Origin: a virus
Taxonomy: Duplodnaviria > Caudoviricetes
Virus record (IMG/VR): IMGVR_UViG_3300017767_000010
Location: 1 to 60,141 of that record
Length of the DNA: 60,141 bases
Direction: 5' to 3' (one strand)
Shown here: piece after piece, positions 14,627-52,792 of the stretch
Layout: every line of letters starts with the position of its first letter
How positions within the stretch are numbered: position 1 is the stretch's first letter
Notes under the pieces: model-generated
What the model was told of the DNA's origin: nothing
Database searches by the model: none
Seen by the model: only the letters and a program-made list of their open reading frames with translations
Translations under genes and position numbers: made by a program

Positions 14627-16866
14627 TGTATAATCAAACCTTATATAAGATACACACCGAACATTTATCATCTAAATTAGTTAAAAATAATAATAGATAT
14701 AAAAAATTCGAGTACGGTTATAATAAAGATTTAGATTGTGTTGTTATAAGTAAAGACGGTACAATAGGTGAAATATATGAAATACAAGGATTAAAAATTG
14801 CACTTCCTTTAATACCTAAAGAAATTAATGGTAAAGAATTAAAAAAAGAAGATCAAGTATTTATTCAAACACCTAAACCAGCTACACTTAAAAAAATAAA
14901 AAGTATATATAATTTTAAGTCGTATAATGAGGATATAAAAGAAAAGTATTATGAATATATTAACAAGGAGTTTGATTTTCGTTCTGATGGTTACTGGTTC
15001 ATGTGCAACGGTGAGCCATGTTACCTCACCGGCTCCCATTATATATACCTCAATTGGACAAAGATCGATGTGGGTTCACCCGATTTTAGACACGCAAACA
15101 GATTATTTTTTTATTTCTGGGAGGCGTGCAAGGCGGATTATAGGTGTTATGGAATGTGCTACCTCAAGAACAGACGGTCTGGTTTCTCCTTTATGGCGAG
15201 TTCGGAAGTTGTCAACGTGGCAACTGTTACCAGAGATGCAAGATTTGGGATACTTTCAAAGACTGGAGGAGACGCGAAGAAGATGTTCACGGATAAGGTT
15301 GTCCCAATTTCCACGAACTACCCATTCTTTTTTAAACCAATACAGGATGGCATGGAGAGGCCAAAGACAGAATTATCGTATAAGGTACCATCGAGAAGGC
15401 TCACAAGAAAGACGATACAAGCAACCACCTCAACCACCGAAGAGAGTGATCAAATGGGACTTGACACCACCATCGACTGGAAGAATACAGGTGACAATTC
15501 CTACGACGGGGAGAAACTACAGATCCTCGTCCATGATGAATCGGGCAAGTGGGAGAAGCCGGACAACATTCTCAATAACTGGAGGGTCACAAAGACGTGT
15601 CTCCGTCTCGGTTCGAAGATAGTTGGTAAATGTATGATGGGATCTACATCTAATGCGTTAGACAAAGGTGGTAGTAATTTTAAAAAAATTTATAATGACT
15701 CAGATCTCACAAAGAAAAAAAGAAATCGCAATGGGCAGACTGCTAGTGGATTATATGCTTTGTTCATTCCTATGGAATGGAACTTCGAAGGATTCATTAA
15801 CAAATTTGGTTTTCCTGTCTTCGACACTCCGGAAACTCCGGCTGAAGGAATTGACAGGGAGCTTATCTACAACGGAGTTATCGATCATTGGGAGAATGAA
15901 GCAGATGGGCTCAAAGATAATGCCGATGCTTTAAACGAATATTATAGACAGTTTCCTAGAACTGAAAAACATGCATTTAGAGATGAAACAAAAGAATCAA
16001 TATTTAATTTATCAAGGATATATGAACAGATAGATTTTAATGAAGAAATGGTTGCATCAGGATATGTAACAAGAGGTTCTTTTCAATGGAAGAATGGTGT
16101 TAAAAATACTAAAGTACAATTTTATCCTAATCCTGAAGGAAAATTTAGAATATCTTGGATTCTTCCAACGGATATGCAGAATAATATAGAAATTAAAAAT
16201 GGAATTAAATATCCAGGTAATAAAGCTTATGGTGCTTTTGGTTGTGATAGCTACGATATAAGTGGAACAACAGATGGTGGCGGTTCAAATGGATCGCTAC
16301 ACGGATTAACAAGTTTTTCGTTATCACCAGATGTTCCTAAGTCACAATTTTTTTTAGAATATATTGCAAGACCACAAACAGCTGAAATGTTTTTTGAAGA
16401 TGTATTAATGGCTATTATATTTTATGGTATGCCAATACTTGCAGAAAATAATAAGCCTAGATTATTATATCATTTAAAAAGAAGAGGTTATAGAGGATTC
16501 TCTATGAATCGACCAGATAAAGCTAGAAATAAATTATCTGTAACAGAAAAAGAATTAGGTGGAATTCCTAATACATCAGAAGATATAAAACAAGCACATG
16601 CGTCTGCTATAGAATCCTATATAGAAAACAATGTAGGCATAACAGATGAAGAACATGGTAGAATGTATTTTCAAAGAACACTTGAAGATTGGTCTAAGTT
16701 TAATATTAACAATAGAACAAAGTTTGATGCTTCAATAAGTAGTGGTTTAGCTATAATGGCTTGCCAAAGACATTTATATGCTCCAAGAGCAGAAAGACAA
16801 ACAAGAAAGATAGATTTTGGATTTTCTAAATATAATAATTCAGGATTAAAAAGTAAAATATTATAA
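14626..16866 (+). CDS. terL: terminase large subunit
   Basis: Walker A-like KNRRSGFS, Walker B LVHDESGK, nuclease GCDSYD, ENNK and FDASI motifs. Confidence 0.93.
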   Translation: MYNQTLYKIHTEHLSSKLVKNNNRYKKFEYGYNKDLDCVVISKDGTIGEIYEIQGLKIALPLIPKEINGKELKKEDQVFIQTPKPATLKKIKSIYNFKSYNEDIKEKYYEYINKEFDFRSDGYWFMCNGEPCYLTGSHYIYLNWTKIDVGSPDFRHANRLFFYFWEACKADYRCYGMCYLKNRRSGFSFMASSEVVNVATVTRDARFGILSKTGGDAKKMFTDKVVPISTNYPFFFKPIQDGMERPKTELSYKVPSRRLTRKTIQATTSTTEESDQMGLDTTIDWKNTGDNSYDGEKLQILVHDESGKWEKPDNILNNWRVTKTCLRLGSKIVGKCMMGSTSNALDKGGSNFKKIYNDSDLTKKKRNRNGQTASGLYALFIPMEWNFEGFINKFGFPVFDTPETPAEGIDRELIYNGVIDHWENEADGLKDNADALNEYYRQFPRTEKHAFRDETKESIFNLSRIYEQIDFNEEMVASGYVTRGSFQWKNGVKNTKVQFYPNPEGKFRISWILPTDMQNNIEIKNGIKYPGNKAYGAFGCDSYDISGTTDGGGSNGSLHGLTSFSLSPDVPKSQFFLEYIARPQTAEMFFEDVLMAIIFYGMPILAENNKPRLLYHLKRRGYRGFSMNRPDKARNKLSVTEKELGGIPNTSEDIKQAHASAIESYIENNVGITDEEHGRMYFQRTLEDWSKFNINNRTKFDASISSGLAIMACQRHLYAPRAERQTRKIDFGFSKYNNSGLKSKIL
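14951..15622 (+). CDS. candidate nested lipoprotein-like ORF in the +1 frame of terL
   Basis: 223 stop-free codons; MNILTRSLIFVLMVTGSC N-terminus; matches a GC-rich patch. Confidence 0.45.
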   Translation: MNILTRSLIFVLMVTGSCATVSHVTSPAPIIYTSIGQRSMWVHPILDTQTDYFFISGRRARRIIGVMECATSRTDGLVSPLWRVRKLSTWQLLPEMQDLGYFQRLEETRRRCSRIRLSQFPRTTHSFLNQYRMAWRGQRQNYRIRYHREGSQERRYKQPPQPPKRVIKWDLTPPSTGRIQVTIPTTGRNYRSSSMMNRASGRSRTTFSITGGSQRRVSVSVRR

Positions 16867-16868
16867 TA

Positions 16869-19229
16869 ATGGCAGAAGCTACAGGATATACAACTCAATT
16901 TCCCAGCCAATCGGTTGATGACGCTACAAAAAATAGCGAAAAATACGGAATGGAAGTGGCAAGAGGTATAAAAAATGAGTGGTTTAGAAAGAGTGCCGGT
17001 ACAGGTAGATTCCTTCAAAACCAACGAGAATTCCATAGACTAAAATTATATGCTAGAGGTGAACAATCAACACAAAAATATAAAGATGAATTTTCTATAA
17101 ATGGTGATTTATCTTATTTAAATCTTGATTGGAAACCCGTACCTATAATTCCAAAATTTGTTGATATAGTTGTAAATGGTATGCAAGATAGATTGTTTAC
17201 AATTAAAACATTTGCACAAGATCCTTCGTCTACAAAGAAAAGAACTGATTTTGTAGAAATGATGCAGGAGGACATGAATACAAAAGATTTTATAGAGAAT
17301 ATAGATCAACAACTAGGTATTAATGTACAAAATTTTAAAAATAAAGAAATACCTGATTCAGATGAAGAATTAGAGCTTCATATGCAGCTTAATTATAAAC
17401 AAACTATTGAGCTTGCTCATGAACAAGCTATTGATAATGTATTTAAAAGAAATAATTATTATGAACTTAAAAAACGTTTAGATTATGACCAAACTGTCTT
17501 GGGTATATCTTGCGCTAAGCATACTTTTAATAATACTGATGGTATTAAACTCGAATACGTAGATCCAGCTAATTTAGTATATTCATATACAGAAGATCCA
17601 AATTTTCAAGATGTATATTACTTTGGAGAAATAAAACAAATAAAATCTAACGAACTTAAAAAACAATTTCCTGGATTATCAGATGAAGAATTTGAAGATT
17701 GTATAAAAAAATCTGGTAAAACTAATCAATACGATTATACTAATAATGATTCTGAAGATTCATATGATTCTAATACATTAACAGTATTATATTTTAATTG
17801 GAAATCTTGGGAAAAAAGTGTTTTTAAAATAAAAGAAACATCTTCTGGCGCTAAAAAAGCAATTAAAAAAGACGATAATTTTAATCCGCCTAAAGATCAA
17901 AGAACAAGATTTGAAAGAGTAGCACAAGCAAGAGAAGTTATATATGAGGGTGTTATGGTTTTAGGTGCTAATAAACTTTTAAAATAGGAAAAAGCACAAA
18001 ATATGGTTCGTCCTGATTCTAACGTGAATACTGTTATGATGAATTATATTGTTAGCTCACCTAGATTTTACAAAGGTAAAATTGAAAGCTTAGTTAGCAG
18101 GATGGTTACTTATGCTGATCTTATTCAACTAACACATTTAAAATTACAACAAGTAATACAAAGAATGACACCTTCCGGTGTATTTGTAGATGCAGACGGG
18201 TTATCTGAAATAGATTTAGGTAATGGTACAAATTATAATCCACAAGAAGCATTAAATTTATATTTTCAAACAGGATCTATTATTGGGCGTTCTATGACTG
18301 TGGATGGTGATATGAATCCTGGTAAAGTACCTATTCAAGAATTACCAGGTGGTGGTGGTCAACAATCTACACTTTTAATTCAATCATATAATTATTATTT
18401 AAATATGATAAGAGATGTGACCGGGTTAAATGAAGCTAGAGATGGTTCTGATCCAGATCCTCATGCTTTAGTTGGTGTACAAAAACTAGCAGCTGCTAAT
18501 TCAAACACAGCTACAAGGCATATATTAAATAGTTCTATGTATATAACAAGTGAACTTGCGGAGGCTATTTCTATAAGAATAAAAGATGTACTTACGTATC
18601 ATCCTCAAAGAGATGTGTTTATTAAAAGTTTAGGTAGATTTACTGTGGGAGCATTGAAAGAATTAGAAAATGTACATATGCATGATTTTGGTGTATTTAT
18701 TGAATTAGATCCTGATGAAGATGAAAAACAATTAGTTGAAAATAATATACAAGCTGCTTTATCAAGAGACCAAATACAACTAGAAGATGTAATAGATATT
18801 AGAGCAATTAAAAATATTAAATTAGCTAATCAACTATTAAAATTTAGAAGAGTAAAAAAAGCTACATTTGATCAAATAAAAGCAGAAAGAAATATTGCTG
18901 CTCAATCAGAAGCTAATGCAAAAGCGGCTCAGGCCGCTGAGATGGCAAAGGCACAATCTGAAAATATGAAAGTGCAAGCTAAAGTAAAACTTAGTGAAGC
19001 ACAGAAAAATTTTGATATTCAAAAACTTCAAAGTGAAGCTAGTGCTAAAAAAGAACTTATGCAATTTGAGTTTGATTTGAATATGAAATTAAAAAGAATG
19101 GAATTAGATTCAAAAGAAAAAGTAGAACTTAGTAAACCTATTAGAAGTGCAAAGCCTAATAAAGCATTTGAGTCTAAAGGTAATGACGTTCTAGGGGGGT
19201 TAGATCTTTCAAGATTTGAACCTAAATAA
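16869..19229 (+). CDS. portal protein, interrupted by one in-frame TAG at 17985-17987
   Basis: ORFs 16869-17987 and 18003-19229 share a frame, joined by TAG GAA AAA GCA CAA AAT; position after terL; LDWKPVPIIPKFVDIVVNG and RDVTGLNEARDG motifs. Confidence 0.88.
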
Positions 19230-19257
19230 ATTTTAAATTATTATATATTATTAAATT

Positions 19258-20541
19258 ATGGAAAAGTGGAAAGTAAAAGGAATCGTCACAGACGAGCCAA
19301 AATCTAAACAACAAACAGAACAAGCTGTTTTAGATAAAGCTGTAGAAAAAGGTGAAATTGAACCAGAAGCTGCAGGCAAAAAAGATAACGAAGTTATAAA
19401 AGTTGATTTAGATAAACTAAAAAATAAAGAAAAAGATGCCGTTCAAAAGCAAAGCACAAATGAGGTATCTGTACGCGACGGATCCGAAACTAGCAAAGAA
19501 GTTCAAAAAGAAAACAAAGAGGAAACTAAAGAACCTGCCGGAGAAAATAAACAAGAAGAAAACAATAAAGGTAACAAAGAAGAACAAAGGGAAGAAGTAG
19601 ATTCTCCTATTGAACTTATAAAAGAAGAAGAAAATAAACAGCCTAAAAAAGTTGAAGATAATCAACCTAAAGTTGATCAACAGGCGGCTGAAGTAAATAA
19701 AAAGCCTGAACCAAAAGAACCTGAAATAAACTTACCAGAAAATGTTGATAAGCTAGTAAAGTTTATGGATGAAACAGGAGGTTCAATTGAAGATTATGTA
19801 GCTCTTAATAAAGACGTGTCTGCTTTAAAAGATGGGGAATTATTAAGGGAATTTTATACAAAATCTAAACCATGGGAACAATCTGAAATATCAGAATATA
19901 TGGAAGATAATTTTTCATTTACTGAAGAAGATGATCCTAAAGAAATACGTGCTAAAAAGCGCGCATATAAAGAAGAAATACATAAAGCTAAACAGTTTTT
20001 TACTGTTAACAGGGATAAATATTATGCTGACATCAAGTTGAATAAGCAAAACGAAATACCTGAACAATATGAAAATGCTTTAAAGTTTTATGAAAATTCA
20101 CAAAAGAACGAAGAAATAAACAAAGAAATAACAAATAAATTTTTGAAAAGAACAGAAAATGTTTTTAGTAATGATTTTAAAGGATTTGATTTCCAAGTTG
20201 GAAATAATAAATATAGATATAAAGTCAATAATATTACAGAAACAAAAAATGCTCAATCTAATCTTGAAAATTTTATAAATCAATTTGTAAATAGCAAAGG
20301 AGATTTAGAAAATGTAAGTGGTTACCATAAAGCTTTATTTACTGCAAGAAATGCAGATAAAATAGCTCAACATTTTTATGAGCAAGGCCGTGCCGATGCT
20401 TTACAACAAAATGCAAAAGAAGCTAAAAATATAAATATGGATCCACGAAAAGAAGGAATTTTAGAAACAAAAACAGGACAAAAATTTAGAGTTGTTTCAG
20501 GTAATTCTAGTTCAAAACTTAGAGTTAAACTTAAACAATAA
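19258..20541 (+). CDS. scaffold-like acidic protein
   Basis: 427 aa between portal and capsid; E/K-rich N-half, FMDETGGSIEDY and HFYEQGRADA motifs. Confidence 0.7.
   Translation: MEKWKVKGIVTDEPKSKQQTEQAVLDKAVEKGEIEPEAAGKKDNEVIKVDLDKLKNKEKDAVQKQSTNEVSVRDGSETSKEVQKENKEETKEPAGENKQEENNKGNKEEQREEVDSPIELIKEEENKQPKKVEDNQPKVDQQAAEVNKKPEPKEPEINLPENVDKLVKFMDETGGSIEDYVALNKDVSALKDGELLREFYTKSKPWEQSEISEYMEDNFSFTEEDDPKEIRAKKRAYKEEIHKAKQFFTVNRDKYYADIKLNKQNEIPEQYENALKFYENSQKNEEINKEITNKFLKRTENVFSNDFKGFDFQVGNNKYRYKVNNITETKNAQSNLENFINQFVNSKGDLENVSGYHKALFTARNADKIAQHFYEQGRADALQQNAKEAKNINMDPRKEGILETKTGQKFRVVSGNSSSKLRVKLKQ
19436..19600 (+). CDS. nested small basic protein, MPFKSKAQ type (+1 frame)
   Basis: MPFKSKAQMRYLYATDPKLAKKFKKKTKRKLKNLPEKINKKKTIKVTKKNKGKK; A-rich leader; N-terminus like ORF 1276-1377. 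Confidence 0.75.
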   Translation: MPFKSKAQMRYLYATDPKLAKKFKKKTKRKLKNLPEKINKKKTIKVTKKNKGKK

Positions 20542-20554
20542 AAATTTATAAAAA

Positions 20555-22003
20555 ATGAGTCTTACAACTGGAATAGAACATTTGACACCTTCGCCTAGCA
20601 AAGGCCAATTGTTCCAAGGTAATTATATTACCAATTTTGATTTTACAAACCAGTTCTTACCTGACGTTTATGAAAAGCAAGCTGAAATTTATGGAAACAG
20701 ATCTATTGGTGGTTTCTTAAAATTAGTATCTGCAGAGATGCCTTCAGCTTCCGATGAAATAAGATGGGTAGAACAAGGAAGATTACATATAGCTTACAAA
20801 AACGTAGCTATTTCAACTGTTACGTTTACAGTAACTTTTGATACATTACCTGACGGCACATCAGCCGGTACCGCACAAGTACCTGCTGTTAGAGTAGGCC
20901 AAACCATTATGGTTCAAGGTCTTACATCAGGTGGAGCTCATACGGGCCCTGTACAAAAAGGTGTTGTAACTGTAGCTGGTGCAAATGCAAACAGTACAAC
21001 AGGTACATTCCAAGCTAAATGTTTAGAAGCTGCTAACTGGAATGCTGTTACAGGCGCAGCTAGTTTTAGTAAAGCTACTGTATTAGTATATGGTTCTGAA
21101 TTTGCAAAAGGTTCTGCTGGAATGACAGGAGAAGTTGATGCAGTATATCAGTCTTATACTAATAAGCCTATGATATTAAAAGACAACTATGCTATTAATG
21201 GTTCTGATACTGCACAAATAGGATGGATTGAAGTTACTTCTGAAAACGGAGCTTCAGGATATTTATGGTATTTACAATCTGAACACGAAACTCGTCAAAG
21301 ATTTGAAGATTACTTAGAAATGTCTATGATTGAATCTGTTAAGAAAGATAGTAATTCAGCATTATCCGCTTCAGAATCACCAGGGGGTACAGAAGGTTTA
21401 TTTGCTGCATTAAGCGGTAGAGGAAATGTTTACACAGATCTTGCTGCTGATTTATCTGCATCTGGTCTTCCAATGACCGGCTTTGATACTATATTAAAGC
21501 AATTAGATAAAAACGGAGCTATTGAAGAAAACATGCTTTATATCAATAAGACATTATCTTTAGCTATTGACGACGCACTTGCTGCCAAAAACTCTTACGG
21601 TACTGGCGGTACTTCTTATGGTGTATTTAACAATAGTGAAGATATGGCATTAAACTTAGGTTTTTCAGGATTTAGAAGAGGTGGATATGACTTCTATAAA
21701 ACTGACTGGAAATATTTAAATGACTTTGGAACAAGAGGTCAATTTGGAGATATTGAAGGTGTATTAATTCCTGCTGGAACTTCTACAGTTTACGATCAAG
21801 AATTAGGTCAAAATATTAAAAGACCATTCTTGCACGTAAGATATAGAGCTTCAGAAGCTGATGATAGAAAAATGAAAACTTGGATTACAGGTTCTGTAGG
21901 TGGTGCTTATACTACTACTACAGATGAAATGCGAGTTTCATTCTTATCTGAAAGATGTTTAATAACGCAAGGAGCTAATAACTTCTTCTTATTGAAAAAC
22001 TAA
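20555..22003 (+). CDS. major capsid protein
   Basis: 482 aa after the scaffold, followed by a hairpin terminator; WVEQGRLH, GFSGFRRGGYDF, LSERCL motifs. Confidence 0.88.
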   Translation: MSLTTGIEHLTPSPSKGQLFQGNYITNFDFTNQFLPDVYEKQAEIYGNRSIGGFLKLVSAEMPSASDEIRWVEQGRLHIAYKNVAISTVTFTVTFDTLPDGTSAGTAQVPAVRVGQTIMVQGLTSGGAHTGPVQKGVVTVAGANANSTTGTFQAKCLEAANWNAVTGAASFSKATVLVYGSEFAKGSAGMTGEVDAVYQSYTNKPMILKDNYAINGSDTAQIGWIEVTSENGASGYLWYLQSEHETRQRFEDYLEMSMIESVKKDSNSALSASESPGGTEGLFAALSGRGNVYTDLAADLSASGLPMTGFDTILKQLDKNGAIEENMLYINKTLSLAIDDALAAKNSYGTGGTSYGVFNNSEDMALNLGFSGFRRGGYDFYKTDWKYLNDFGTRGQFGDIEGVLIPAGTSTVYDQELGQNIKRPFLHVRYRASEADDRKMKTWITGSVGGAYTTTTDEMRVSFLSERCLITQGANNFFLLKN

Positions 22004-22019
22004 TTTTTAATTTAGAGAT

Positions 22020-22058
22020 GGGGTGTCCTAACGGGCACCTCAATCTTTATTTATTTTA
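22020..22058 (+). terminator. intrinsic terminator after the capsid gene
   Basis: GGGGTGTCC-TAAC-GGGCACCTC stem-loop followed by a T-rich tract. Confidence 0.75.
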
Positions 22059-22072
22059 TTAAATTATATATT

Positions 22073-22792: not shown

Positions 22793-22799
22793 AACACCA

Positions 22800-22827
22800 G
22801 GCTATGGCTATTCGCTTAGCCATAGTC
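22800..22827 (+). other. intergenic stem-loop
   Basis: GGCTATGGCTA-TTCGCT-TAGCCATAGTC; no U-tract. Confidence 0.6.
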
Positions 22828-22847
22828 AACTAATTAATAAATAAATA

Positions 22848-24514: not shown

Positions 24515-24520
24515 AATTAA

Positions 24521-26344: not shown

Positions 26345-26345
26345 T

Positions 26346-44060: not shown

Positions 44061-44250
44061 AGAAGAACAATAGTCCAACTATTATACCAAAGACCGGACC
44101 AAGTATAGCCCAAACTTTATATAGTTTTATAATGTTATTCTCTTTAGAAGAATAAATATTATCTTCTGTATTTAAATTTAAAGACTCTAGTTTATTTTCT
44201 AAGTCTTTTATTTTTGCTTTTGCATCAGCAAAGGTAAATCTTTTCGCCAT
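44059..44250 (-). CDS. small coiled-coil protein with C-terminal TM helix
   Basis: 63 aa; WAILGPVFGIIVGLLFF tail. Confidence 0.7.
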   Translation of the reverse strand: MAKRFTFADAKAKIKDLENKLESLNLNTEDNIYSSKENNIIKLYKVWAILGPVFGIIVGLLFF

Positions 44251-44264
44251 ATTATTATTTTATA

Positions 44265-46007
44265 TTAACCATCGCAGCTTAAACAATTAGGATCCATAGC
44301 TGCTGCTGCTATATCTCCTCTCAATACAGACTCTGTCCTCATATAATATAAGGTCTTTATTCCATGTTTCCATGCGTCCATATGTACCGTATTAATCCAT
44401 CTAGGTGTAGCCTCAGAAGGAAAAGCTAAATTAAGTGATACTGATTGATCAATATAATCTTGTCTTATACCTGCTTGTCTAACTAATTCTAGTTGGTTTA
44501 TTTCTTTAAATGTTTTAAATACGTTTTTGACTGGCTCTCCGTCTTCTTTATTAAGTCTTCCTCTTTCGTCATAATACCATCCGTTGAGTGCATCGAGTGT
44601 TTGAATGGATCCACCATCGGCAAGTATCTTATCCCATGTATCTTTGTTATCAATCCCAAGTTTTTTAAGTATTTTTTTAAGTTCGTTATTTTTTCTAATA
44701 AATGTTCCTTTAGCAGATTGCTCTGTAAATATATTAGCAGCCCATGGTTCAATACCGGCTGAAACATTTCCTGATAGTTTTGAATTACTAACAGTTGGTG
44801 CAATAGATCTTAAGTGTGTATTTCTAAATCCTGTACCAACACACCATAAGGGTTCACCATATATTTCAGCAAGTTCTCTTGAAGCTCTTTCAGTTTCTAT
44901 TTTTATTTTTGAAAATATTTCTCGCGTTTTGAATTGTGCTAATAAACTTTCGAAAGCTATTCCTCTTTTTTGTAGCAGGCTGTGCCATCCAAGGACACCA
45001 AGTCCAAGTGCCCTGCCTTTTTCCGCACTGCGTACAGAGTTCTCGAATCCCTTCATATTCTTTGCTCTCTGAATAAATTCTTCTAGCACACCGTCCAGGA
45101 ACCATGTCGCGTCGTAAATTAAATTTGTATTCTTCCATTCATCGTATTTATCTAAATTAAGTGAAGATAAACAACAAACAAAACTATGTGATTCATCCGT
45201 ATGCAGTACAATCTCACTACATATATTAGTCATATGTACTTTTAAACTGTTTTTCTTATATGCTGCTGGATTAGCTTTGTTTGTATTTCCTTTAAACAAG
45301 ATATATGGTTCTCCAGTTGCTTTACGTTTTTGGATAAGTTTGGACCATCTAATTCTTGCTTCTTCGTCTCCAAGCTCAAGCTTTCGCATAAACTTATCGC
45401 CAACGACAGCACACTGCTGCAGGTTAAGAGATTGTCTATTGACATCTCCTTTAGGTTCTCTAATTTCCAACCATTCGAGGAAATCATCGTGTTCAATATT
45501 GATATTAACGCTTGCAGCTCCTCTTCTAACGGAACCTTGGTTGGTCGCCAATATAGTTGAGTCGTATATTTTGCAAAAAGGGACAACGCCATCTGAAGTT
45601 CCATTACCTGTAATTTTAGCACCAGCGGGACGAATCATATTAACTCCGATACCTACACCCCCGCCGTGTTTTGCAAGCAACATCATTTCTAAATTTTTAT
45701 TACCTATGTCTTGTATACTATCTGAAACATCAATTCCAAAACAACTTATAGGTAAACCTCTATCTGAACCTGTGTTAGACAATACAGGTGATGCTAAACA
45801 CAACCACCCTTTCCATATATAATCAAAAAACTTATCAGCTAGTTCTGGCTTATATAAACGCTTTGCTACTGTTTTAGCAACACGCATATATGCATCACGT
45901 GGTGATTCACCATTAATTAAATATCCACCTGATATTGTTTTCTTATATATATCTGTATCACCCCACACAGGGTAATCTTTATTTTTTTTCCAATTACTAT
46001 TCCACAT
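44265..46007 (-). CDS. nrdA: ribonucleotide reductase class I alpha subunit (short form)
   Basis: PISCF, TNICSEI, CCLSS, APTVSNS, KTLYY, C-terminal CLSCDG. Confidence 0.95.
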   Translation of the reverse strand: MWNSNWKKNKDYPVWGDTDIYKKTISGGYLINGESPRDAYMRVAKTVAKRLYKPELADKFFDYIWKGWLCLASPVLSNTGSDRGLPISCFGIDVSDSIQDIGNKNLEMMLLAKHGGGVGIGVNMIRPAGAKITGNGTSDGVVPFCKIYDSTILATNQGSVRRGAASVNINIEHDDFLEWLEIREPKGDVNRQSLNLQQCAVVGDKFMRKLELGDEEARIRWSKLIQKRKATGEPYILFKGNTNKANPAAYKKNSLKVHMTNICSEIVLHTDESHSFVCCLSSLNLDKYDEWKNTNLIYDATWFLDGVLEEFIQRAKNMKGFENSVRSAEKGRALGLGVLGWHSLLQKRGIAFESLLAQFKTREIFSKIKIETERASRELAEIYGEPLWCVGTGFRNTHLRSIAPTVSNSKLSGNVSAGIEPWAANIFTEQSAKGTFIRKNNELKKILKKLGIDNKDTWDKILADGGSIQTLDALNGWYYDERGRLNKEDGEPVKNVFKTFKEINQLELVRQAGIRQDYIDQSVSLNLAFPSEATPRWINTVHMDAWKHGIKTLYYMRTESVLRGDIAAAAMDPNCLSCDG

Positions 46008-46356
46008 TTAAATAATATATTAAATATCCTATTGACACGTTTAAATTTACTAATACTAAGTTCCATTGTTTTGCAACCCACACTTGTGGTATAGATAGCA
46101 TACCCCCTATAATATAGGTTGTAATACCTATATTACCTTGTGCTAATAAATAGGGTGACATCATAATAAACGCTGTGCCCATATATCCTAATCTATTTGC
46201 AATTCTTTCTTTTGCTGTAAGTCTTCTATCTTGAACCAATAATCTCACGAAAGAACGCTTCCATCTAAACTCACAGCTTATACATGTTTTCTTGCCTAGA
46301 TGTTTAAACTTATGGTCTTTTTTCTTTTTCTTACAGACATTACAAACTCTCACCAA
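45997..46356 (-). CDS. CxxC-CxxC zinc-finger membrane protein
   Basis: CNVC...CISC then about three hydrophobic helices. Confidence 0.7.
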   Translation of the reverse strand: MVRVCNVCKKKKKDHKFKHLGKKTCISCEFRWKRSFVRLLVQDRRLTAKERIANRLGYMGTAFIMMSPYLLAQGNIGITTYIIGGMLSIPQVWVAKQWNLVLVNLNVSIGYLIYYLNVE

Positions 46357-46595
46357 TTACATCTATTAGTACGTCTATATATTATAGTTGTACTATTATT
46401 TGGATAAGTATATAATAAATTATAATCATAATTATATATAGGATTTGTAGATATAATATATAATTGGTCTTGCATAGTGTTCATATAATGAATATTATTA
46501 TTATAATCTTGGTTATAATTATAAAATAATTGATCGTTAAGTTGTGCATTGCTATAAAATCCTATAGCTAAAAATAATATTAAAATTTTTTTCAT
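46350..46595 (-). CDS. secreted Asn/Tyr-rich small protein
   Basis: MKKILILFLAIGFYSNA|Q signal peptide. Confidence 0.65.
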   Translation of the reverse strand: MKKILILFLAIGFYSNAQLNDQLFYNYNQDYNNNIHYMNTMQDQLYIISTNPIYNYDYNLLYTYPNNSTTIIYRRTNRCNW

Positions 46596-46620
46596 AATTA
46601 ATTATTGTTTAAAAGTTTAT

Positions 46621-47589
46621 TTACCAAATATCTTCAAAGTCTTCCCCTTCATTAGCTTTCGAATAATCAGTCGGCCTAATAGAAAAGAAATCAGTATGAG
46701 TGTGCCCGCCGGTAAGATGGTAGAACCAGTCCAAACTGCTCGCTCCAACTTCGTCATATTCAAAGTACTTCCCGCTGTTTGAGTAACCGAGTTCAACAAT
46801 TTTTTCGTTAAGACGTTTCCTGATAAATTGTTTAAGGTCATATGCTTTGAGGTTTTCAATATCCCCTTGTTCAAACATTTTGTCAATATATCTTTCTTCT
46901 GCTTTAAGCATTGTTTTTGCTGCTTTAATAACGTGTTCATAACAGTCATCTTGTAATCCTTTAATTTCTTTACACATATGTCTAAATAACTGACATCCCA
47001 TTTTAGAATGCAGCGATTCATCTCTTACACTCCATTTCATTTGTTGACCAATTCCTTTTAGCAAATTACGCAACTGAAAACTATATAACACAGCGAAAGC
47101 GGAATAAAGACTAACACCCTCTGCAAATGCAGAAAACACAGCAAGAGACTTACCTATACCAACTGGATTTTTACCTGTATAACTTACAAGATTTTCAAAT
47201 CTTTCAGCAGTTGCTGGCTCGTGTAAAAATGCTTCAAAGTTTTCAAGCCCTAGCGTTTCATTTAAATAAGAATAAGCAACAGCATGAATTGTTTCTTGTG
47301 AACCAAACATCATTGCCATTTGTTGTATTTCATGTTTAGGAAACCAACCTACAACCTTCTGTGTCCAATAATCTGATACCGCACATTCTGTTTGTGCAAA
47401 TCCTAAAAGTATGTTGCCAACTAAATTTTTTTCTGATTTAGTTAATTTTTCATTCCAGTCTTTAACATCGCTTGACATTGGTATTTCAGTATGTAACCAA
47501 AAAGCTTGTGCTTGTTTTAGCCAACCTTCTGTATAATATTCAGGATATTCAAAAGGTTTATAAGGTATTCTTTCGTCAAATAATCCCAT
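46621..47589 (-). CDS. nrdB: ribonucleotide reductase beta subunit
   Basis: FW...E, ETIH..AY, EGV.LYS.F, RDESLH diiron motifs, TDFF. Confidence 0.95.
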   Translation of the reverse strand: MGLFDERIPYKPFEYPEYYTEGWLKQAQAFWLHTEIPMSSDVKDWNEKLTKSEKNLVGNILLGFAQTECAVSDYWTQKVVGWFPKHEIQQMAMMFGSQETIHAVAYSYLNETLGLENFEAFLHEPATAERFENLVSYTGKNPVGIGKSLAVFSAFAEGVSLYSAFAVLYSFQLRNLLKGIGQQMKWSVRDESLHSKMGCQLFRHMCKEIKGLQDDCYEHVIKAAKTMLKAEERYIDKMFEQGDIENLKAYDLKQFIRKRLNEKIVELGYSNSGKYFEYDEVGASSLDWFYHLTGGHTHTDFFSIRPTDYSKANEGEDFEDIW

Positions 47590-47795
47590 TACTTTTTTTC
47601 TTCTTTTTCAGGTTCTTTTGTATTTTCTTTCTTAAGTTCTTCAAGAGCTTCAGCATAACCAGGTAATTTTTTTGTAAGCATCATTGTACCTACAGATAAA
47701 TCTTTTAAGTTATGTAACTCTTGTACTATCCTATTCATAGAGTTGCCTAGCACTTCTATTTTATTACGCATTTCTATTAGCTTAGCTTCCTTCAT
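47589..47795 (-). CDS. hypothetical protein
   Basis: 68 aa, coupled to nrdB. Confidence 0.7.
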   Translation of the reverse strand: MKEAKLIEMRNKIEVLGNSMNRIVQELHNLKDLSVGTMMLTKKLPGYAEALEELKKENTKEPEKEEKK

Positions 47796-48003
47796 TTTTT
47801 AAAAAATAATTTGTTAAAGTATTTATTCTATCATCTGCATCAACTAACATTTGTAATGCTTGCTCTGCGTTTTTATAATAATCATCAGTTGAATGATCAC
47901 CTATACCTGCAGCTTTATTGCTTAACAAATCTAAACTAAGCATTGCTTTTGCTTTATCTGCTTCAGCAGATTTTAATAACATTTCATATAATTGTTTGTA
48001 CAT
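47782..48003 (-). CDS. conserved hypothetical protein
   Basis: 73 aa; GIGDHS motif. Confidence 0.75.
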   Translation of the reverse strand: MYKQLYEMLLKSAEADKAKAMLSLDLLSNKAAGIGDHSTDDYYKNAEQALQMLVDADDRINTLTNYFLKNEGS

Positions 48004-48199
48004 CTTTACTAAGTATTATAGGGCTTGCGTCCTTATTGTTTTTAACTTCAATATGTGTTTCTTTAATAGTAATAATTGGATCAATAGTTTCAATTACTCT
48101 TCTAGTTATATTACCGTGTTGATCTCTTATTACTTTCTTTTTAGAAAAAGTTTTTTTGTATTTTTTTAAAACGTATTCTTTTAGCTTTTCTTTATTCAT
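47984..48199 (-). CDS. hypothetical protein
   Basis: 71 aa overlapping neighbours. Confidence 0.65.
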   Translation of the reverse strand: MNKEKLKEYVLKKYKKTFSKKKVIRDQHGNITRRVIETIDPIITIKETHIEVKNNKDASPIILSKDVQTII

Positions 48200-48335
48200 A
48201 ATGTATTGTTAAACATATTTCTACAAAAGGTACATATAATACATGTTCTATAAATGTTTCCTCAGGATAACTTCGTATACCTACTAAGACGCCTGGATAT
48301 AATCCTAAACTAATTTCCCAACCTGCTATTTTCAT
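48192..48335 (-). CDS. small hypothetical protein (47 aa)
   Basis: Hand translation MKIAGWEISLGLYPGVLVGIRSYPEETFIEHVLYVPFVEICLTIHYE. Confidence 0.65.
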   Translation of the reverse strand: MKIAGWEISLGLYPGVLVGIRSYPEETFIEHVLYVPFVEICLTIHYE

Positions 48336-48519
48336 TAAAATAATAATTTAACATTTTCATATGAAACTTTATTCTTTCGATATAATGATGTCGAAGTGAA
48401 GGTATTTCTGTGTCTTTAAATTCCGTGTTGTTCATGTATCTTTAATATATCTTTATACTTTATAGGATTTCTTTTTATTAATTTTTTAATTTCCTTATCT
48501 ATCTTTCTTCGTCTATACA

Positions 48520-48981
48520 TTATCTCTGCCTCTTTCTTCTTCTTGATTCTTTGATCAAATTTATCGTCAGATCTACTTCTTTCTGATTTTGAGGCTTGTA
48601 AAGTATCTTTCCAATATTGTTTTTCGTGAGCCATAATTTAAAAAGTTTCCATCTTAATGGGAAAGATTCATTTGGTCTGCCTTTGCATTCTATAATATAA
48701 TCTTTACCAATAAAATCTGGTGTATATTTTATACCTAATATTTTTTTAATTCCTCTATTTATATATTCGCCTTTACCATTAGCTTGTTTTTCATAACTTG
48801 TATTAGGAAATTCAAATGTATTTATTAATTGAAAAGTTTCATTTTCATATCCTTCAAACAATTTATTTTTTTTTAAAGCTATATAAGTGTATCTTTCAAG
48901 ACCCGAAGCAAAATTAATACCATCATATGATATTTTTTTAGCCTGTACAGGGCCTCGCTTTTTACTTTTACGTCTTCTCAT
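48520..48981 (-). CDS. T7 endonuclease I-like Holliday junction resolvase
   Basis: FASGLE...YE...YTPDF...IECKG PD-(D/E)xK pattern. Confidence 0.8.
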   Translation of the reverse strand: MRRRKSKKRGPVQAKKISYDGINFASGLERYTYIALKKNKLFEGYENETFQLINTFEFPNTSYEKQANGKGEYINRGIKKILGIKYTPDFIGKDYIIECKGRPNESFPLRWKLFKLWLTKNNIGKILYKPQNQKEVDLTINLIKESRRRKRQR

Positions 48982-48982
48982 G

Positions 48983-49258
48983 CTAATATGTAATATCCCA
49001 ATCTTTACCTGTGTTATCTGATGTCCAACTAGATTCAGGATATTTAGTTAGCTTTTTGTTTTCTTCAAATAATACAGCTCTAGCTTTTTCAATATAATTA
49101 GCAGCATCCATAAGCTCTTCTTGTAAATGATTAAGCCAAGCGTCTAATGGTTGATCATCTTTATCTAAACCTACACCATATTTTTTGTAACCTGCTTCAG
49201 CACGTTTTTGAATCTTTTCAATTACGCGATTAATTATTTTGTCGTTTATCTTACTCAT
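48983..49258 (-). CDS. MazG-like all-alpha NTP pyrophosphatase
   Basis: G.KKYG...WL.HLQEELMDA..Y. Confidence 0.6.
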   Translation of the reverse strand: MSKINDKIINRVIEKIQKRAEAGYKKYGVGLDKDDQPLDAWLNHLQEELMDAANYIEKARAVLFEENKKLTKYPESSWTSDNTGKDWDITY

Positions 49259-50009
49259 CTTTTACAAATGTTCCGTTAACCATTTTACCTGTTCGTTTTG
49301 AAATAACATTAAATGAAGAATCAATACAATCTTCAATTTTAAATCCTTCAAGCTCTGAAAGATTTGCAAGCACTATTACCATATCACCAATAGCATCTTG
49401 TATTTCATCTTTATCTTGTTTTAATAATGCTTGAGCAAGCTCACCTGCTTCTTCCATTAATTTAACATACTGTGTTTTACTATCACCTTTTTGATAAAGG
49501 TTACGTTGTTTAGCCCAGCTTCTTATTTTATTAAAAGATGAATCATTATTAGAAAATGCTTCTATAAAAGCTTTATTATATATGTAGCATGTACCTGGCC
49601 CAAATTGGCTAGCATGTACATTAGCTAATATCCAATCTATATATTCTTGTTTGTTTAATTCAAATGTATCTTCAGCAAATTTTAATACTATATTTCTTAA
49701 AAATTCAGCATTAATATCACTAGGCGATATTTTAAATGTTGTTGTTGCTTGTGATGAGCTATGTTTATTCATTTTTTTAGTAAATAAATCTTTATATAAT
49801 TTAATATCTTTTTTATATTTAAGTTCTTCTTGCAAAGTTCTTTCAGCTTCTGAAGCCTCTACTATATCATCTGTTTCATATAGTATATCGTATTCACCAG
49901 GTTTATAACCTTGTTCTTTTTCTACACGTTTTTTAATATTAGTTGTACAACCAATCTTAACTCCAGGTATATGGTATATTTTGTACTTACCGCTTTTTAG
50001 TTCTATCAT
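49251..50009 (-). CDS. GIY-YIG-like domain fused to MazG pyrophosphatase
   Basis: N-terminal YKIYH...KIGCT.N...R; C-terminal KLMEEAGELA...DAIGD...GTFVK. Confidence 0.8.
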   Translation of the reverse strand: MIELKSGKYKIYHIPGVKIGCTTNIKKRVEKEQGYKPGEYDILYETDDIVEASEAERTLQEELKYKKDIKLYKDLFTKKMNKHSSSQATTTFKISPSDINAEFLRNIVLKFAEDTFELNKQEYIDWILANVHASQFGPGTCYIYNKAFIEAFSNNDSSFNKIRSWAKQRNLYQKGDSKTQYVKLMEEAGELAQALLKQDKDEIQDAIGDMVIVLANLSELEGFKIEDCIDSSFNVISKRTGKMVNGTFVKDE

Positions 50010-50830
50010 GTATTTAATTTTGCTTTAATTGGTGGGTGTGGATTATAATTTTTTATTTTAATCATATCTGATGTAGGTATCACTATAAACTCACGTGGTC
50101 CTTGTTCAACAGTAAGTCCGAGAGAAATATCAACATTAGGTAGTTTCCTAAAATCATTATTAAGTTGTTGTTTAGCTTGCTCGATATGGTTGCTATACAA
50201 ATGACAATCACCAAGGGAAGCAATAAGCTGACCTTCTTTATAGCCATTCCCTTTAGCAAGTAACTTAAGTAATAAACCATACATTGCAATATCATAAGGC
50301 AACCCAAGGAAAACATCAACTGATCGTTGTTGCCACATAAGATTAATTTTTCCATCATTTATATATATTTGAAAACCATAGTGGCAAGGAGGTAACACCA
50401 TATCATCCATATCATTGGGATTCCATAAGCTTGCCATAATGCGCCGCGAGCTTGGCTCTTCTTTAATTTGGATGAGTATTCGTTTAAGCTGATCAATACC
50501 ATTAAAGTCCCTAAGCTGCTTGCCGTAAATAGGACCAAGCGTGCCGTCAGTTCTACCTGATCTATTATAATCAGCATCCCAGTAACTAACACCATTAGAC
50601 TGAAGGTAATGAATATCAGTACGACCTTGTAATATCCATAATAGTTCCGTAACTGCATGTTTAAAATATATTTTTTTAGTTGTTAATAATGGAAAGCCAA
50701 GTGACATATCGTGCTTTATTGTTCTACCAAATACAGATTTAGTACCTGTACCTGTTCGATCTTCTTTTGCTTTGCCACTATATAATACACCAGCTAATAA
50801 GCCTCTATATTCATCTTGTATGTTTATCAT
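50006..50830 (-). CDS. thyA: thymidylate synthase
   Basis: DRTGTGT, FPLLTTKK, LPPCH, QRSVDVFLGLPYD, GDCHLY; start 50830 preferred. Confidence 0.96.
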   Translation of the reverse strand: MINIQDEYRGLLAGVLYSGKAKEDRTGTGTKSVFGRTIKHDMSLGFPLLTTKKIYFKHAVTELLWILQGRTDIHYLQSNGVSYWDADYNRSGRTDGTLGPIYGKQLRDFNGIDQLKRILIQIKEEPSSRRIMASLWNPNDMDDMVLPPCHYGFQIYINDGKINLMWQQRSVDVFLGLPYDIAMYGLLLKLLAKGNGYKEGQLIASLGDCHLYSNHIEQAKQQLNNDFRKLPNVDISLGLTVEQGPREFIVIPTSDMIKIKNYNPHPPIKAKLNT

Positions 50831-51098
50831 AATAGTATTTACACATTTTATAATATTCAGGCCATATAGTATGTTTATCATAAACACTTGGTGAAAAACT
50901 TATAGTCTCGCCTTTCTTATATAAACCAAAAGCAATTGCTATTTTCCATTTACCAGGTTCTTGATGTATACCATAAGGTGATATTCTTATATTATTATCA
51001 ACACAATGTTTTTGCCATGTTTCTTCTTCTATACTAGTTGAGTAGGACGGCATTTTATATGCATTCTTTTTTCCTCTGCCTACTAATCCACTTCCCAT
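50811..51098 (-). CDS. hypothetical protein
   Basis: 95 aa overlapping both neighbours. Confidence 0.7.
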   Translation of the reverse strand: MGSGLVGRGKKNAYKMPSYSTSIEEETWQKHCVDNNIRISPYGIHQEPGKWKIAIAFGLYKKGETISFSPSVYDKHTIWPEYYKMCKYYYDKHTR

Positions 51099-52792
51099 GG
51101 CATATCATTTTTTATTTGTTGTGTTATTGGTATATAGTTACCGCTTACTTTATCCCATGTAAAATGTGCTTCAGCTTGATTCTCACCTAAGTTTTGAAAC
51201 TTTACTTTAAGAACTTTAACTTTTACAGTTTGCTTTTCATAATCTCTATGCACGAGCAATCCGTGATAAGATGCATCATACCATTCACCACCACCTTTAA
51301 TATTATACATATTAGGTTCGTCAATAGTACCATCATCTTTCTTATACATTTTAGTGGGATGAGCTACAACAATAACAAGTACATCATGCTTCTTAGCAAA
51401 AGCTTCAACTCTAGTTAAGTATTCCATAGTAGCATCTGTAATACTCATATTACTAGCACCATTCATCTTAACTTTATTATAAGGGTCTATAACTAAACAC
51501 TTTATACCTTTACGTTTTACAAGCTCTGCACCTTTCTCTAAAACAGAATCTAAATCATATCTTTCATTTTCTATAAAGAAAAAGTTATTGTTAACTACAT
51601 CAGTTACTTCATTCCATTTATCAGAACCTATATCTGTTTCTCTTGGCATCCAACCACCTATTTTACGAATAAGCTTATGACCATGTAGAAACGTAGGTTT
51701 ATTTTCTGGTGAAGCAAAAGCTGTTTTCCAACCATATTTTAAATAATAACCTATAATCATTCTATCTACAAAATCTGATTTACCTGAACTAGGTACACCT
51801 GTTACTGTAATAAACTGACCGGTATATGTTGAAAATATATTATCAAAAGGCTCTAACCCGATTTGATAACCGGGTTTGAAACCTTCTTTAATAAACTCTT
51901 TTAATTCATTACTTACATCTGATAATGTTAAAACATTTTCAAGAGGGACGGGGCTAGCATTATTAATGATGCCAGCAAGCATGTCGCTCCCATTGTGAAT
52001 AAGAAATTCATTAGCGTCTTTGTGATTACCGAAGTCGATCGTATAGCACGCTTCTGCTCCGAGTCTTCGAATAAGTTCTTGCTTAAGATTTTCTCCTGCC
52101 TCATCCTGATCAACTGCGAGAATGATTTTTTCTTTTGATTCAAAATAATCAATGCAGTTGTCCAAGTAATCAAGGTTAGTGTTATTAATTGTAGCTCCGT
52201 TTGGGACGCTAACCACTGAATCAATCCCAGCTTCAATAAAAGATAAAGCGTCAATCTCTCCTTCCACAATAACCACATATCTATGACTAAGAGTAGAATC
52301 AATATTATAAAATATTTTTTCTGCCCCTTTAACAAGTTTAAAATTTTTTCTTCCATCTCTATACTTTATGTTTGTTAATTCGTTATTAATAAAGTAATTA
52401 AATTGGATTGTGTTTTCTTTTTGTCCTGTCTGTGGCATATATTCTAATCCTTCAGATACTTTCATTTTATCTAAAGTACTTTCTGATATACCACGCTGTT
52501 TAAACCATTGAATAACTTTATTACTTAGTTTAGTATTTGTAATAGGTTCCGGCTTAACATATTCTTTATCAGGGTTTTTCCTTTTAAAGGTATGTAGCTG
52601 GAATGTATTATTACAATTATGACAAGTTCCAAGACCACGTTTCCAGTCGTAAGATGCACATTTCTTTTTCTGGTTAGCAGGTTTCCTGTCAGCAGAGCAA
52701 AGAGGACAAACGCCCTCTTGCTCACCAACTTTAAGATTATATTGATTAAATATATCTATATCGAAACCATTAATCTCGATGTCATTTATCAT
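51083..52792 (-). CDS. primase-helicase (T7 gp4/Twinkle-like)
   Basis: CPLC...CHNC zinc finger, TOPRIM EGEIDALS and D.DEAG, Walker A GVPSSGKS, VIDP, VAHP. Confidence 0.93.
   Translation of the reverse strand: MINDIEINGFDIDIFNQYNLKVGEQEGVCPLCSADRKPANQKKKCASYDWKRGLGTCHNCNNTFQLHTFKRKNPDKEYVKPEPITNTKLSNKVIQWFKQRGISESTLDKMKVSEGLEYMPQTGQKENTIQFNYFINNELTNIKYRDGRKNFKLVKGAEKIFYNIDSTLSHRYVVIVEGEIDALSFIEAGIDSVVSVPNGATINNTNLDYLDNCIDYFESKEKIILAVDQDEAGENLKQELIRRLGAEACYTIDFGNHKDANEFLIHNGSDMLAGIINNASPVPLENVLTLSDVSNELKEFIKEGFKPGYQIGLEPFDNIFSTYTGQFITVTGVPSSGKSDFVDRMIIGYYLKYGWKTAFASPENKPTFLHGHKLIRKIGGWMPRETDIGSDKWNEVTDVVNNNFFFIENERYDLDSVLEKGAELVKRKGIKCLVIDPYNKVKMNGASNMSITDATMEYLTRVEAFAKKHDVLVIVVAHPTKMYKKDDGTIDEPNMYNIKGGGEWYDASYHGLLVHRDYEKQTVKVKVLKVKFQNLGENQAEAHFTWDKVSGNYIPITQQIKNDMPWEVD

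Follow-up and report, generated by a model that had tools for sequence, protein, structure and literature searches.

Conserved +1 reading frames inside terL, primase-helicase, thyA and nrdA of marine phages as candidate overprinted genes

Results

Genes and overlapping reading frames in the window

The DNA analyzed here, hereafter the window, is the whole 60,141-base stretch of the IMG/VR virus record IMGVR_UViG_3300017767_000010. It has a GC content of 31.8% and 14.4 CpG per kb, and it reads as a complete or near-complete phage genome. A late block lies on the plus strand (GroEL/GroES-like proteins, tail fibre, holin, endolysin, terL, portal, scaffold, major capsid-like and large virion proteins), and an early block on the minus strand (nrdA, nrdB, resolvase, MazG fusion, thyA, primase-helicase, exonuclease, Erf, sigma-like factor and ligase). 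The subject of this work is a set of long open reading frames (ORFs) that overlap conserved genes of both blocks in another frame of the same strand, and that a previous sequence-only reading had taken for a hidden second layer of genes. All the ORFs listed in that reading were found on the host strand at the positions given below, and all are in the +1 frame, except for one +2 ORF in nrdA.

On the plus strand, terL (14626-16866, 746 amino acids) matches phrog_6681 (E = 1e-157) without interruption over residues 26-743; the annotated frame is thus coding over its whole length. Within it lies terL-alt1, a +1 ORF of 223 amino acids at 14951-15622 (stop-free from 14939), which sits on an island of raised GC content at third codon positions (GC3). 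The scaffold gene contains a +1 ORF of 54 amino acids at 19436-19600. The remaining host genes are on the minus strand. The primase-helicase (Toprim plus DnaB-like; 51083-52792, 569 amino acids) was recognized by Pfam Toprim_2 (E = 3e-14), AAA_25 and DnaB_C falling slightly short of their cutoffs, and contains primase-alt (51928-52356, +1, 142 amino acids), a hydrophobic sequence with three to four membrane-span-like segments and a charged loop. Thymidylate synthase, thyA (50006-50887, 293 amino acids; Pfam Thymidylat_synt, E = 3e-86), holds two +1 ORFs: thyA-a (50359-50658, 99 amino acids), with three hydrophobic segments, and thyA-b (50083-50358, 91 amino acids), also hydrophobic, which starts at or beside the thyA-a stop. 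The ribonucleotide reductase large subunit gene, nrdA (44265-46007, 580 amino acids; Pfam Ribonuc_red_lgC, E = 1.5e-89), holds nrdA-alt, a +1 ORF of 120 amino acids at 45242-45604 when counted from a conserved ATG (45242-45622 and 126 amino acids when counted from a GTG), which is not hydrophobic. The same gene has the +2 ORF nrdA-alt82 (44890-45138, 82 amino acids), a candidate limited to some lineages, and the +1 ORF nrdA-101 (44498-44803, 101 amino acids), which is not conserved. Finally, nrdB has a +1 ORF of 134 amino acids at 46617-47021 (nrdB-134), whose conservation is ambiguous and which was not counted as a gene.

The sequence-only reading had placed these ORFs on local enrichments of GC and CpG, and this stood for most of them. 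GC3 inside and outside the ORF was 0.54 and 0.16 for terL, 0.29 and 0.20 for primase, 0.29 and 0.22 for the 126-amino-acid ORF of nrdA, 0.35 and 0.21 for nrdA-alt82, 0.33 and 0.18 for nrdB, 0.32 and 0.18 for thyA-a, and 0.26 and 0.13 for scaffold. It was not raised in thyA-b (0.21 inside, 0.24 outside) or nrdA-101 (0.19 and 0.24). CpG reached 30-45 per kb in the listed ORFs, except for thyA-b (14.5, with no rise) and nrdA-101 (26.1). As a general rule, the pairing of GC-rich patches with alternative ORFs failed: of the 11 patches with a total GC of at least 0.40, nine belong to structural genes and owe their GC to codon positions 1 and 2 (GC3 0.12-0.19), that is, to amino-acid composition, and raised GC3 was found only in terL (0.48), nrdA (0.31) and a short patch at 58001-58300 (0.30). 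When patches were defined by GC3, seven of 14 coincided with listed ORFs, and those in GroEL, the exonuclease and a 2366-amino-acid gene had no long alternative ORF.

We then compared ORF lengths in the window with those expected by chance, using 26 genes in two frames (52 gene-frame tests) and 1000 synonymous shuffles each. Gene-wide shuffling gave P values of 0.001-0.002 for terL, nrdA (+1 and +2), nrdB and primase, 0.014 for thyA and 0.45 for scaffold. When codons were shuffled in local blocks of 40, the values were 0.002 for terL, 0.011 for primase, 0.040 for thyA, 0.057 for nrdA +1, 0.155 for nrdA +2, 0.234 for nrdB and 0.68 for scaffold. Thus, in the local shuffle, the ORFs of terL, primase and thyA (each below 0.05), with nrdA +1 close behind, are longer than the host protein and its codon usage predict, and those of scaffold and nrdB are not. 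The sequence-only reading had itself cautioned that a higher GC3 alone removes +1 stops, and this caveat could not be settled from a single genome.

Relatives of the window and the comparative test

Among GenBank phages, the window terL gave only distant DNA matches, mainly to Flavobacterium 'elemo' and Cellulophaga phages, at 65-68% identity; in IMG/VR, the relatives number in the hundreds. The ORFs are carried by uncultured marine phages that form a widespread clade akin to phages of Flavobacteriia. Homologue sets were collected from IMG/VR for terL (80 loci), primase (80), nrdA with nrdB (80) and thyA (44), codon-aligned, and thinned to representatives below 88-92% nucleotide identity. For each representative, synonymous codons were shuffled solely inside the region homologous to the window ORF, a null that keeps the host protein and the regional codon usage, and hence GC3. 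All observed and expected numbers of +1 stops given below were computed with the window excluded. The shuffle ignores codon-pair context, and the controls bound the resulting bias at roughly 5-10%. Major capsid protein (MCP) and scaffold relatives are far more diverged (mostly 35-60% identity) and served as a general control only; the best MCP relative is 77-81% identical and most are 53-61%, much more diverged than those of terL. For the structural genes other than portal, scaffold and MCP, the tests cover the window itself.

The genomes proved to be mosaic. In the relative L001, the terL protein is 100% identical to that of the window, and the portal gene differs at 233 of 2361 nucleotides, all of them beyond base 356. 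Similarly, the window thyA is 91% identical to that of a lineage with 75% terL identity and just 80-82% identical to those of lineages with 96% terL identity.

Stop codons are absent or depleted in the second frame of relatives

In the close clade of primase (19 lineages, 71-81% protein identity), no +1 stop was found over host codons 146-282, where 83.9 were expected, and all 19 lineages were stop-free. The thyA-a region (host codons 77-174) gave none against 31.0 expected and was stop-free in 9/9 lineages. For thyA-b (host codons 177-262), 13 stops were counted against 34.9, all 13 in one lineage (L262), leaving 8/9 stop-free. The first part of the terL region (host codons 110-223) contained no stop against 37.7 expected in 18 lineages (18/18 stop-free), and the whole of it (codons 110-330) 32 against 121.0, with 11/18 stop-free. 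Over nrdA host codons 134-253, 53 lineages had 42 stops against 183.7 expected, and 47 of them were stop-free. The depletion therefore persists at fixed GC3, also where GC3 is barely raised (primase, 0.29; thyA-b, 0.21), and this answers the GC3 caveat.

The controls behaved as expected from the null. The remainder of the same genes gave observed/expected ratios of 0.92-0.95 (0.92 for the rest of primase, 0.92 for nrdA outside nrdA-alt and 0.95 for the rest of terL), portal gave 3093/3136.3 = 0.99 in 43 lineages, and twelve MCP bins ranged from 0.89 to 1.10. In the +2 frame of the same regions, stops were at or above the expected number. Distant clades in which the ORFs are broken returned ratios of 0.89 for primase (435 stops, 489.2 expected), 0.94 for thyA-a (56 and 59.6) and 0.77 for terL. 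In addition, 11 early genes were scanned blind with another locus set, for which the ligase gene was the anchor. Nothing was flagged except the primase bins, which were thus detected independently, a single nrdB bin and the resolvase gene at its 3' end. The latter is where a 72-amino-acid ORF (48416-48634) overlaps, in the +2 frame and by about 115 nucleotides, the 3' end of the resolvase-like gene (48520-48981, minus strand); this frame is open in relatives (four stops against 13.7 expected, 12/14 stop-free), and such an ordinary overlap of adjacent genes is a built-in positive control. Taken with the window-only shuffles, these data indicate that the codon-shuffle null is exceeded by terL, primase, thyA-a, thyA-b and the 126/120-amino-acid ORF of nrdA, that the scaffold ORF and nrdA-101 fit chance, and that nrdB is ambiguous.

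The way in which stops are avoided was visible in codon choice. In the terL ORF region (codons 112-296), a Leu, Ile or Val codon followed by a purine-initial codon is the sole source of +1 TAA or TAG. There, these codons ended in A in 9/233 cases before a purine, versus 119/188 before a pyrimidine; the corresponding figures for primase were 17/568 and 97/172. The risky columns swap T- and C-ending codons between lineages (for instance, CTC in 13 and CTT in 6, or ATC in 9 and ATT in 9), and third-base identity at four-fold boxes inside the ORFs averages only 0.42-0.62. This low identity means that synonymous sites turned over extensively while stops stayed out; judged from these alignments, the openness reflects selection, not frozen ancestry.

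Starts, ends and constraint on the hidden frame

Starts and ends are conserved as well. Primase-alt is 141-147 codons long, with its ATG 3 codons past the upstream stop in 17/20 sequences and a 15-nucleotide leader motif kept in 20/20. For thyA-a, 10/10 sequences (64-100% host identity) share an open stretch of 107 codons that ends at one position and has its ATG at +8, and about 39 nucleotides around this ATG are nearly invariant. ThyA-b spans 87-92 codons, and its ATG lies at +0 or +1 in 9/10 sequences. The nrdA-alt ATG is at host codon 134 in 47/54 sequences, and its end at codon 254 (39 sequences) or 258 (9 sequences). The terL-alt1 region is open over 223-240 codons in relatives down to 73% terL identity, and its first ATG is at 14951 in the window and about 14 codons further upstream in most relatives. 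In every ORF, a +1-frame stop occurs 0-8 codons upstream of the conserved ATG, and the 15-40 nucleotides before the hidden-frame ATGs are A/T-rich and nearly invariant, including the host third positions.

Constraint on the second frame was measured at the four-fold boxes of Ser, Pro, Thr, Ala, Gly and Arg, sites where no +1 stop is possible and where the third position of the host codon is the second position of the hidden one. The identity of the purine/pyrimidine class inside versus outside the ORFs was 0.637 versus 0.593 in terL (P = 0.015), 0.713 versus 0.619 in primase (P = 0.028), 0.762 versus 0.651 in thyA (P = 0.047) and 0.741 versus 0.585 in nrdA (P = 2e-5), and 0.706 versus 0.601 when pooled (P = 3e-8). 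Far clades without the ORFs showed no inside/outside difference in this measure. Identity of the third base itself was raised in nrdA (0.620 versus 0.435, P = 4e-6) and primase (0.561 versus 0.475, P = 0.017). As this constraint falls on positions where stops cannot arise, it points to selection on the type of residue encoded by the hidden frame. Across the aligned relatives, nrdA-alt is the best conserved hidden ORF, with the strongest synonymous constraint. Collectively, the comparison of relatives demonstrated open frames, conserved starts and ends and a constrained hidden second codon position.

The GC3 island of terL co-varies with the hidden frame

In 67 terL sequences, the GC3 island starts near terL codon 110-120 and ends at each lineage's own +1 ORF end. 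In lineages that stop at codon 224, GC3 drops from 0.32-0.44 ahead of the stop to 0.16-0.30 behind it, and lineages with the full ORF average 0.57 in the same columns. In this comparison of GC3 with ORF boundaries, of the kind that the sequence-only reading had proposed, the island in terL tracks ORF length lineage by lineage. Contigs from RNA-labelled marine libraries (X1, X4 and X5) cover parts of terL 15088-16011, including the GC3 island, at 92% identity or above, and seven variants are listed inside the ORF; this is a record of presence only, as all 24 runs listed are stored as contigs, and the RNA-library contigs (four runs compared) tell neither strand, transcript ends, frame nor expression.

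Weaker candidates

A second +1 ORF in terL, terL-alt2 (15668-15934, plus strand), has 88 amino acids from a GTG and a conserved ATG at 15695. It is open over 58-110 codons in 39/41 lineage representatives, with its upstream boundary at host codon 345 or 337. Over codons 347-405, +1 stops were 0 against 7.0 expected in close lineages and 3 against 13.3 in far ones, numbers so small that the power is low, and it is regarded as a weaker candidate. For nrdA-alt82, only a sub-clade with a GC3 of 0.40-0.63 has 0-1 stops, 4-4.6 being expected where GC3 is about 0.4-0.46; in other lineages, the region has a GC3 of 0.12-0.29 and 7-14 stops. In another clade (loci L205-L237), nrdA codons 290-371 are open in the +1 frame instead of +2, many of the lineages having no stop there where about 2-4.7 were expected, which suggests that different clades may carry different overprints in this part of the gene.

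Relatives hold 1-9 stops in the nrdA-101 region, mostly near expectation, and from this comparison it fits chance. The scaffold ORF also fits chance (shuffle P 0.45-0.73), with just 0.59 stops expected because the host sequence has few Leu, Ile or Val codons. For nrdB-134, 2/52 relatives were stop-free and the ratio was 189/285.2 = 0.66, with per-bin ratios of 0.88 and 0.67. Apart from this ORF, codons 120-160 of nrdB (46621-47589) were depleted of +1 stops in relatives (21/43.0, 11/32.9 and 2/9.4); the window itself has two +1 stops there. Hence, of the six host genes in the hidden layer that had been proposed, four are supported by these alignments, namely terL, primase-helicase, thyA (two ORFs) and nrdA (the 126/120-amino-acid ORF); scaffold and nrdA-101 are not supported, and nrdB-134 is weak.

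Predicted products

In the predicted terL-alt1 product, a Lys-rich stretch and then a hydrophobic one make up the N-terminus, which closes with G-S-C, and the remainder is a basic tail rich in Arg, Ser and Thr; the product has an isoelectric point of 11.7, contains 16% Arg and is rich in Ser, Thr, Pro and Gly. In hydropathy profiles, primase-alt, thyA-a and thyA-b each showed three or more membrane-span-like segments. Hydrophobicity was discounted as proof of membrane proteins, because +1 frames of AT-rich genes are often hydrophobic. Among public gene calls, 24 proteins of 128-142 amino acids matched the primase-alt profile, and 135 cluster representatives matched that of terL-alt1; all that follows from these matches is that the ORFs are now and then reported by gene callers, and they do not establish stand-alone copies.

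The idea that the hydrophobic thyA and primase ORFs supply a missing lysis function was rejected, since a canonical holin (12415-12825, plus strand, phrog_3427) and endolysin (12978-13328, plus strand, phrog_894) are already encoded. These hydrophobic ORFs are inside early-region genes and not in the lysis cassette, and no holin family was matched by them.

Other features of the window

The portal gene (16869-19229) is split into ORFs of 372 and 408 amino acids by one in-frame TAG (17985-17987). Both halves match phrog_6547 (profile positions 5-391 and 404-780), and in the relative L001 the site is TGG (Trp) and portal is one ORF of 787 codons (786 amino acids). A nonsense mutation, an error in the assembly or read-through at this site could each account for the TAG; wholesale TAG reassignment is unlikely because TAG ends 10/61 called genes. 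The chaperonin genes comprise a GroEL-like gene (2216-3811; phrog_5725, E = 4e-131), with a GC3 patch over codons 205-305 that reaches 0.48 and has no long alternative ORF, and two GroES-like genes (3795-4055 and 13816-14412). A gene at 49251-50009 (minus strand), between thyA and the resolvase-like gene, encodes an N-terminal T5orf172/MUG113-type domain fused to a C-terminal MazG-like pyrophosphatase. In window-only shuffles, a tail-fibre-like gene that the sequence-only reading had not listed (4840-5751) showed a 51-codon stop-free +1 run around 5279-5383 (P = 0.008-0.016, with 0.016 for the local blocks of 40 codons).

Discussion

We consider it probable, at about 0.72, that at least five of the +1 ORFs (terL-alt1, primase-alt, thyA-a, thyA-b and nrdA-alt) are real overprinted protein-coding genes kept by purifying selection, an assessment that rests on comparison of related sequences, in which the signal is strong, cleanly controlled and seen in dozens of diverged lineages. 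Ribosomes would start on each ORF internally, at the ATG of the ORF itself within the host gene's mRNA, and initiation would be A/T-rich and independent of a Shine-Dalgarno sequence, as is typical of Bacteroidota. Such internal initiation is plausible because Bacteroidetes initiate without Shine-Dalgarno pairing; PMC6847099 describes this initiation as tuned by mRNA structure and upstream nucleotides, with A at -3 as a positive determinant. The predicted products would be small membrane proteins in the case of primase-alt, thyA-a and thyA-b, a basic, largely disordered protein with an N-terminal signal-anchor-like segment in that of terL-alt1, and a soluble helical protein in that of nrdA-alt. 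The rise in GC3 and CpG is best read as a mark left on base composition by the second frame, which calls for G or C at its second codon position, and not as the reason why the frame is open, since position 3 of the host codon is position 2 of the hidden one. The co-variation of GC3 and ORF alone could run either way, and the ORFs may have originated where a GC-rich tract first opened the frame.

Several observations weigh against such genes. The lineages share ancestry, and per-lineage P values are not independent. Third-base identity was not raised in thyA (P = 0.3) or terL (0.418 versus 0.456); the synonymous constraint that could be expected of a second gene was present in all four host genes for the purine/pyrimidine class, and for the third base itself only in nrdA and primase. 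Synonymous codon identity in the terL patch (0.44-0.57) was likewise not raised over that of its flanks (0.55-0.77), which means that the terL-alt1 sequence evolves fast. Several lineages have a terL-alt1 that is cut short at the C-terminal end, at host codon 224, 297 or 315. The G-S-C of terL-alt1 is dictated by the terL motif DGYWFMCNG (residues W-F-M-C), so that its apparent conservation is partly forced by the host. AlphaFold2 predicted no fold for terL-alt1, with a predicted local distance difference test score (pLDDT) of 35.9, and only two long helices for primase-alt (pLDDT 70.4, predicted template modelling score 0.32), which is uninformative on function. None of the nine alternative-frame products scanned against Pfam and PHROG families scored above noise, and tblastn of terL-alt1 and primase-alt against GenBank phages gave no match. 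Hydrophobic segments are nothing unusual in the +1 frames of AT-rich genes, where they occupy 0-14% of background windows. Lastly, A at -3 was present at only some of the hidden-frame starts; the leaders are A/T-rich and conserved, which agrees in part with the A-rich leader that had been put forward as the enabling element.

The ORFs could be untranslated accidents of composition, if a locally raised GC3, due to codon optimisation of conserved segments or to mutation bias, removed the +1 stops. GC3 is indeed up in most ORF regions, the +1 frame is intrinsically more open (about 4-8 stops expected per 140-220 codons, versus 16-25 in +2), and block shuffles weaken the single-genome P values of nrdA and nrdB; this account fits scaffold-54 and nrdA-101, and perhaps nrdB-134. 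However, shuffles at fixed codon usage still expect many stops in primase, thyA-a and terL where none occur, stops are purged with little or no rise in GC3 in primase-alt and thyA-b, and which third base is used varies with the base that opens the following codon, just as stop avoidance predicts. The GC3 patches of GroEL, the exonuclease and the 2366-amino-acid gene, with no long ORF, also speak against it. An accident of composition is contradicted already for the five main ORFs, and we regard it as improbable. An import of the patches by recombination from GC-richer relatives, for instance by co-conversion near homing-endonuclease targets, would make the ORFs incidental passengers. Genes such as terL, nrdA, nrdB, thyA and primase are classic targets of homing endonucleases, the genomes are mosaic, as the terL and portal of L001 and the relationships of the window thyA and terL indicate, and nrdA-alt82 with its GC3 patch is present or absent among lineages at 87-93% host identity. 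Nevertheless, the patches are not unusually alike between lineages, as the codon identity in the terL patch indicates, and import leaves the frame-specific avoidance of stops, the conserved ATGs and the purine/pyrimidine constraint unexplained; we find this origin improbable as well.

Two further explanations accept that the frames are translated. Stray A-rich initiation or frameshifting could bring ribosomes into them, with selection acting on translation or mRNA protection, or against early termination, and the peptides being functionless. The weak conservation of terL-alt1, its lack of a predicted fold, the differences in C-terminal length between lineages and the lack of homologues in the families and phages searched are in line with this possibility. 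Against it, the purine/pyrimidine constraint is found where stops are impossible and indicates selection on residue type, the end points of primase-alt, thyA-a and nrdA-alt are precisely conserved, and no mechanism is known that favours open off-frames, with the control genes showing none; functionless peptides thus also appear improbable. Alternatively, a programmed +1/-2 frameshift could join the N-terminal part of the host protein to an alternative-frame tail, with no internal initiation, and the different position of the first terL-alt1 ATG in the window and in most relatives would agree with such a fusion. It is the least probable of the alternatives, and very unlikely, because +1 stops sit 0-8 codons before the conserved ATGs and leave almost no room for a shift site. 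Overprinted genes translated from their own starts remain our preferred explanation.

Embedded genes of this kind have precedents in position. Bacteriophage T7 has 4.1 and 4.2 within the primase-helicase gene 4, and 19.2 and 19.3 within the terminase large subunit gene 19, that is, in the same two kinds of host gene, on the same strand and fully embedded. All four are +1 by the coordinates of NC_001604 and are annotated only as hypothetical; the likeness in position is striking. They are shorter (123-339 nucleotides, about 40-112 codons, versus 142 and 223-240 codons here), and homology was neither found nor expected. The established case of a complete phage gene embedded out of frame is Rz1 in Rz (Rz/Rz1 of lambda; 18.7 in 18.5 of T7). 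The o-spanins are short, Pro-rich lipoproteins. The N-terminus of terL-alt1 resembles that of an o-spanin in being charged, then hydrophobic, and in ending at a Cys, although this Cys is forced by the terL motif. Unlike Rz1, its host gene is terL and not an i-spanin, and the product is basic and, at 223-240 amino acids, not short.

The overprinted genes of small viruses are also new ORFs inside older genes, with biased or disordered products and a narrow taxonomic range. Genes B, K and E of phiX174 are overprinted, as are many accessory proteins of RNA viruses. Here, in contrast, several long ORFs reside in highly conserved enzymes of a double-stranded DNA phage of about 60 kb, where genome compression is a less obvious driver. 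Overprinting in small viruses and its detection by codon permutation are treated in PMC8227390, PMC6195259 and PMC6188560. Long overlapping genes of bacteria (Pseudomonas aeruginosa and E. coli O157:H7) have been argued to be under purifying selection, according to PMC8850804 and PMC9927249; these are antisense and have ribosome-profiling support, whereas the ORFs described here are same-strand +1 and are known from sequence comparison alone. No report of the present ORFs was found in titles and abstract openings. Overprinting itself is already known, and these particular ORFs would be new as further members.

Somewhat more tentatively than for the individual ORFs, we favour the view that this clade of marine Flavobacteriia-type phages has, conserved among its members, a shadow proteome with five or more de novo +1 genes, in terL, primase-helicase, thyA (two) and nrdA. 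With the same degree of reserve, we lean towards the presence within it of a gene of about 230 codons inside terL whose coding needs create the GC3/CpG island. Gene callers forbid fully embedded same-strand genes, which makes such products invisible in phage and metagenome annotation, and the within-region synonymous shuffle across relatives is transferable to other phage groups. If the ORFs are translated, they would enlarge the accessory proteins of an abundant marine phage group by new ones, several of which are membrane-like, would explain puzzling GC3/CpG islands in an AT-rich genome, and would offer a tractable system for gene birth by overprinting with no need of a Shine-Dalgarno sequence. 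If this is true, standard annotation would systematically miss this layer of genes, and phages with Bacteroidota hosts, where initiation is independent of a Shine-Dalgarno sequence, would come by new genes through overprinting with unusual ease.

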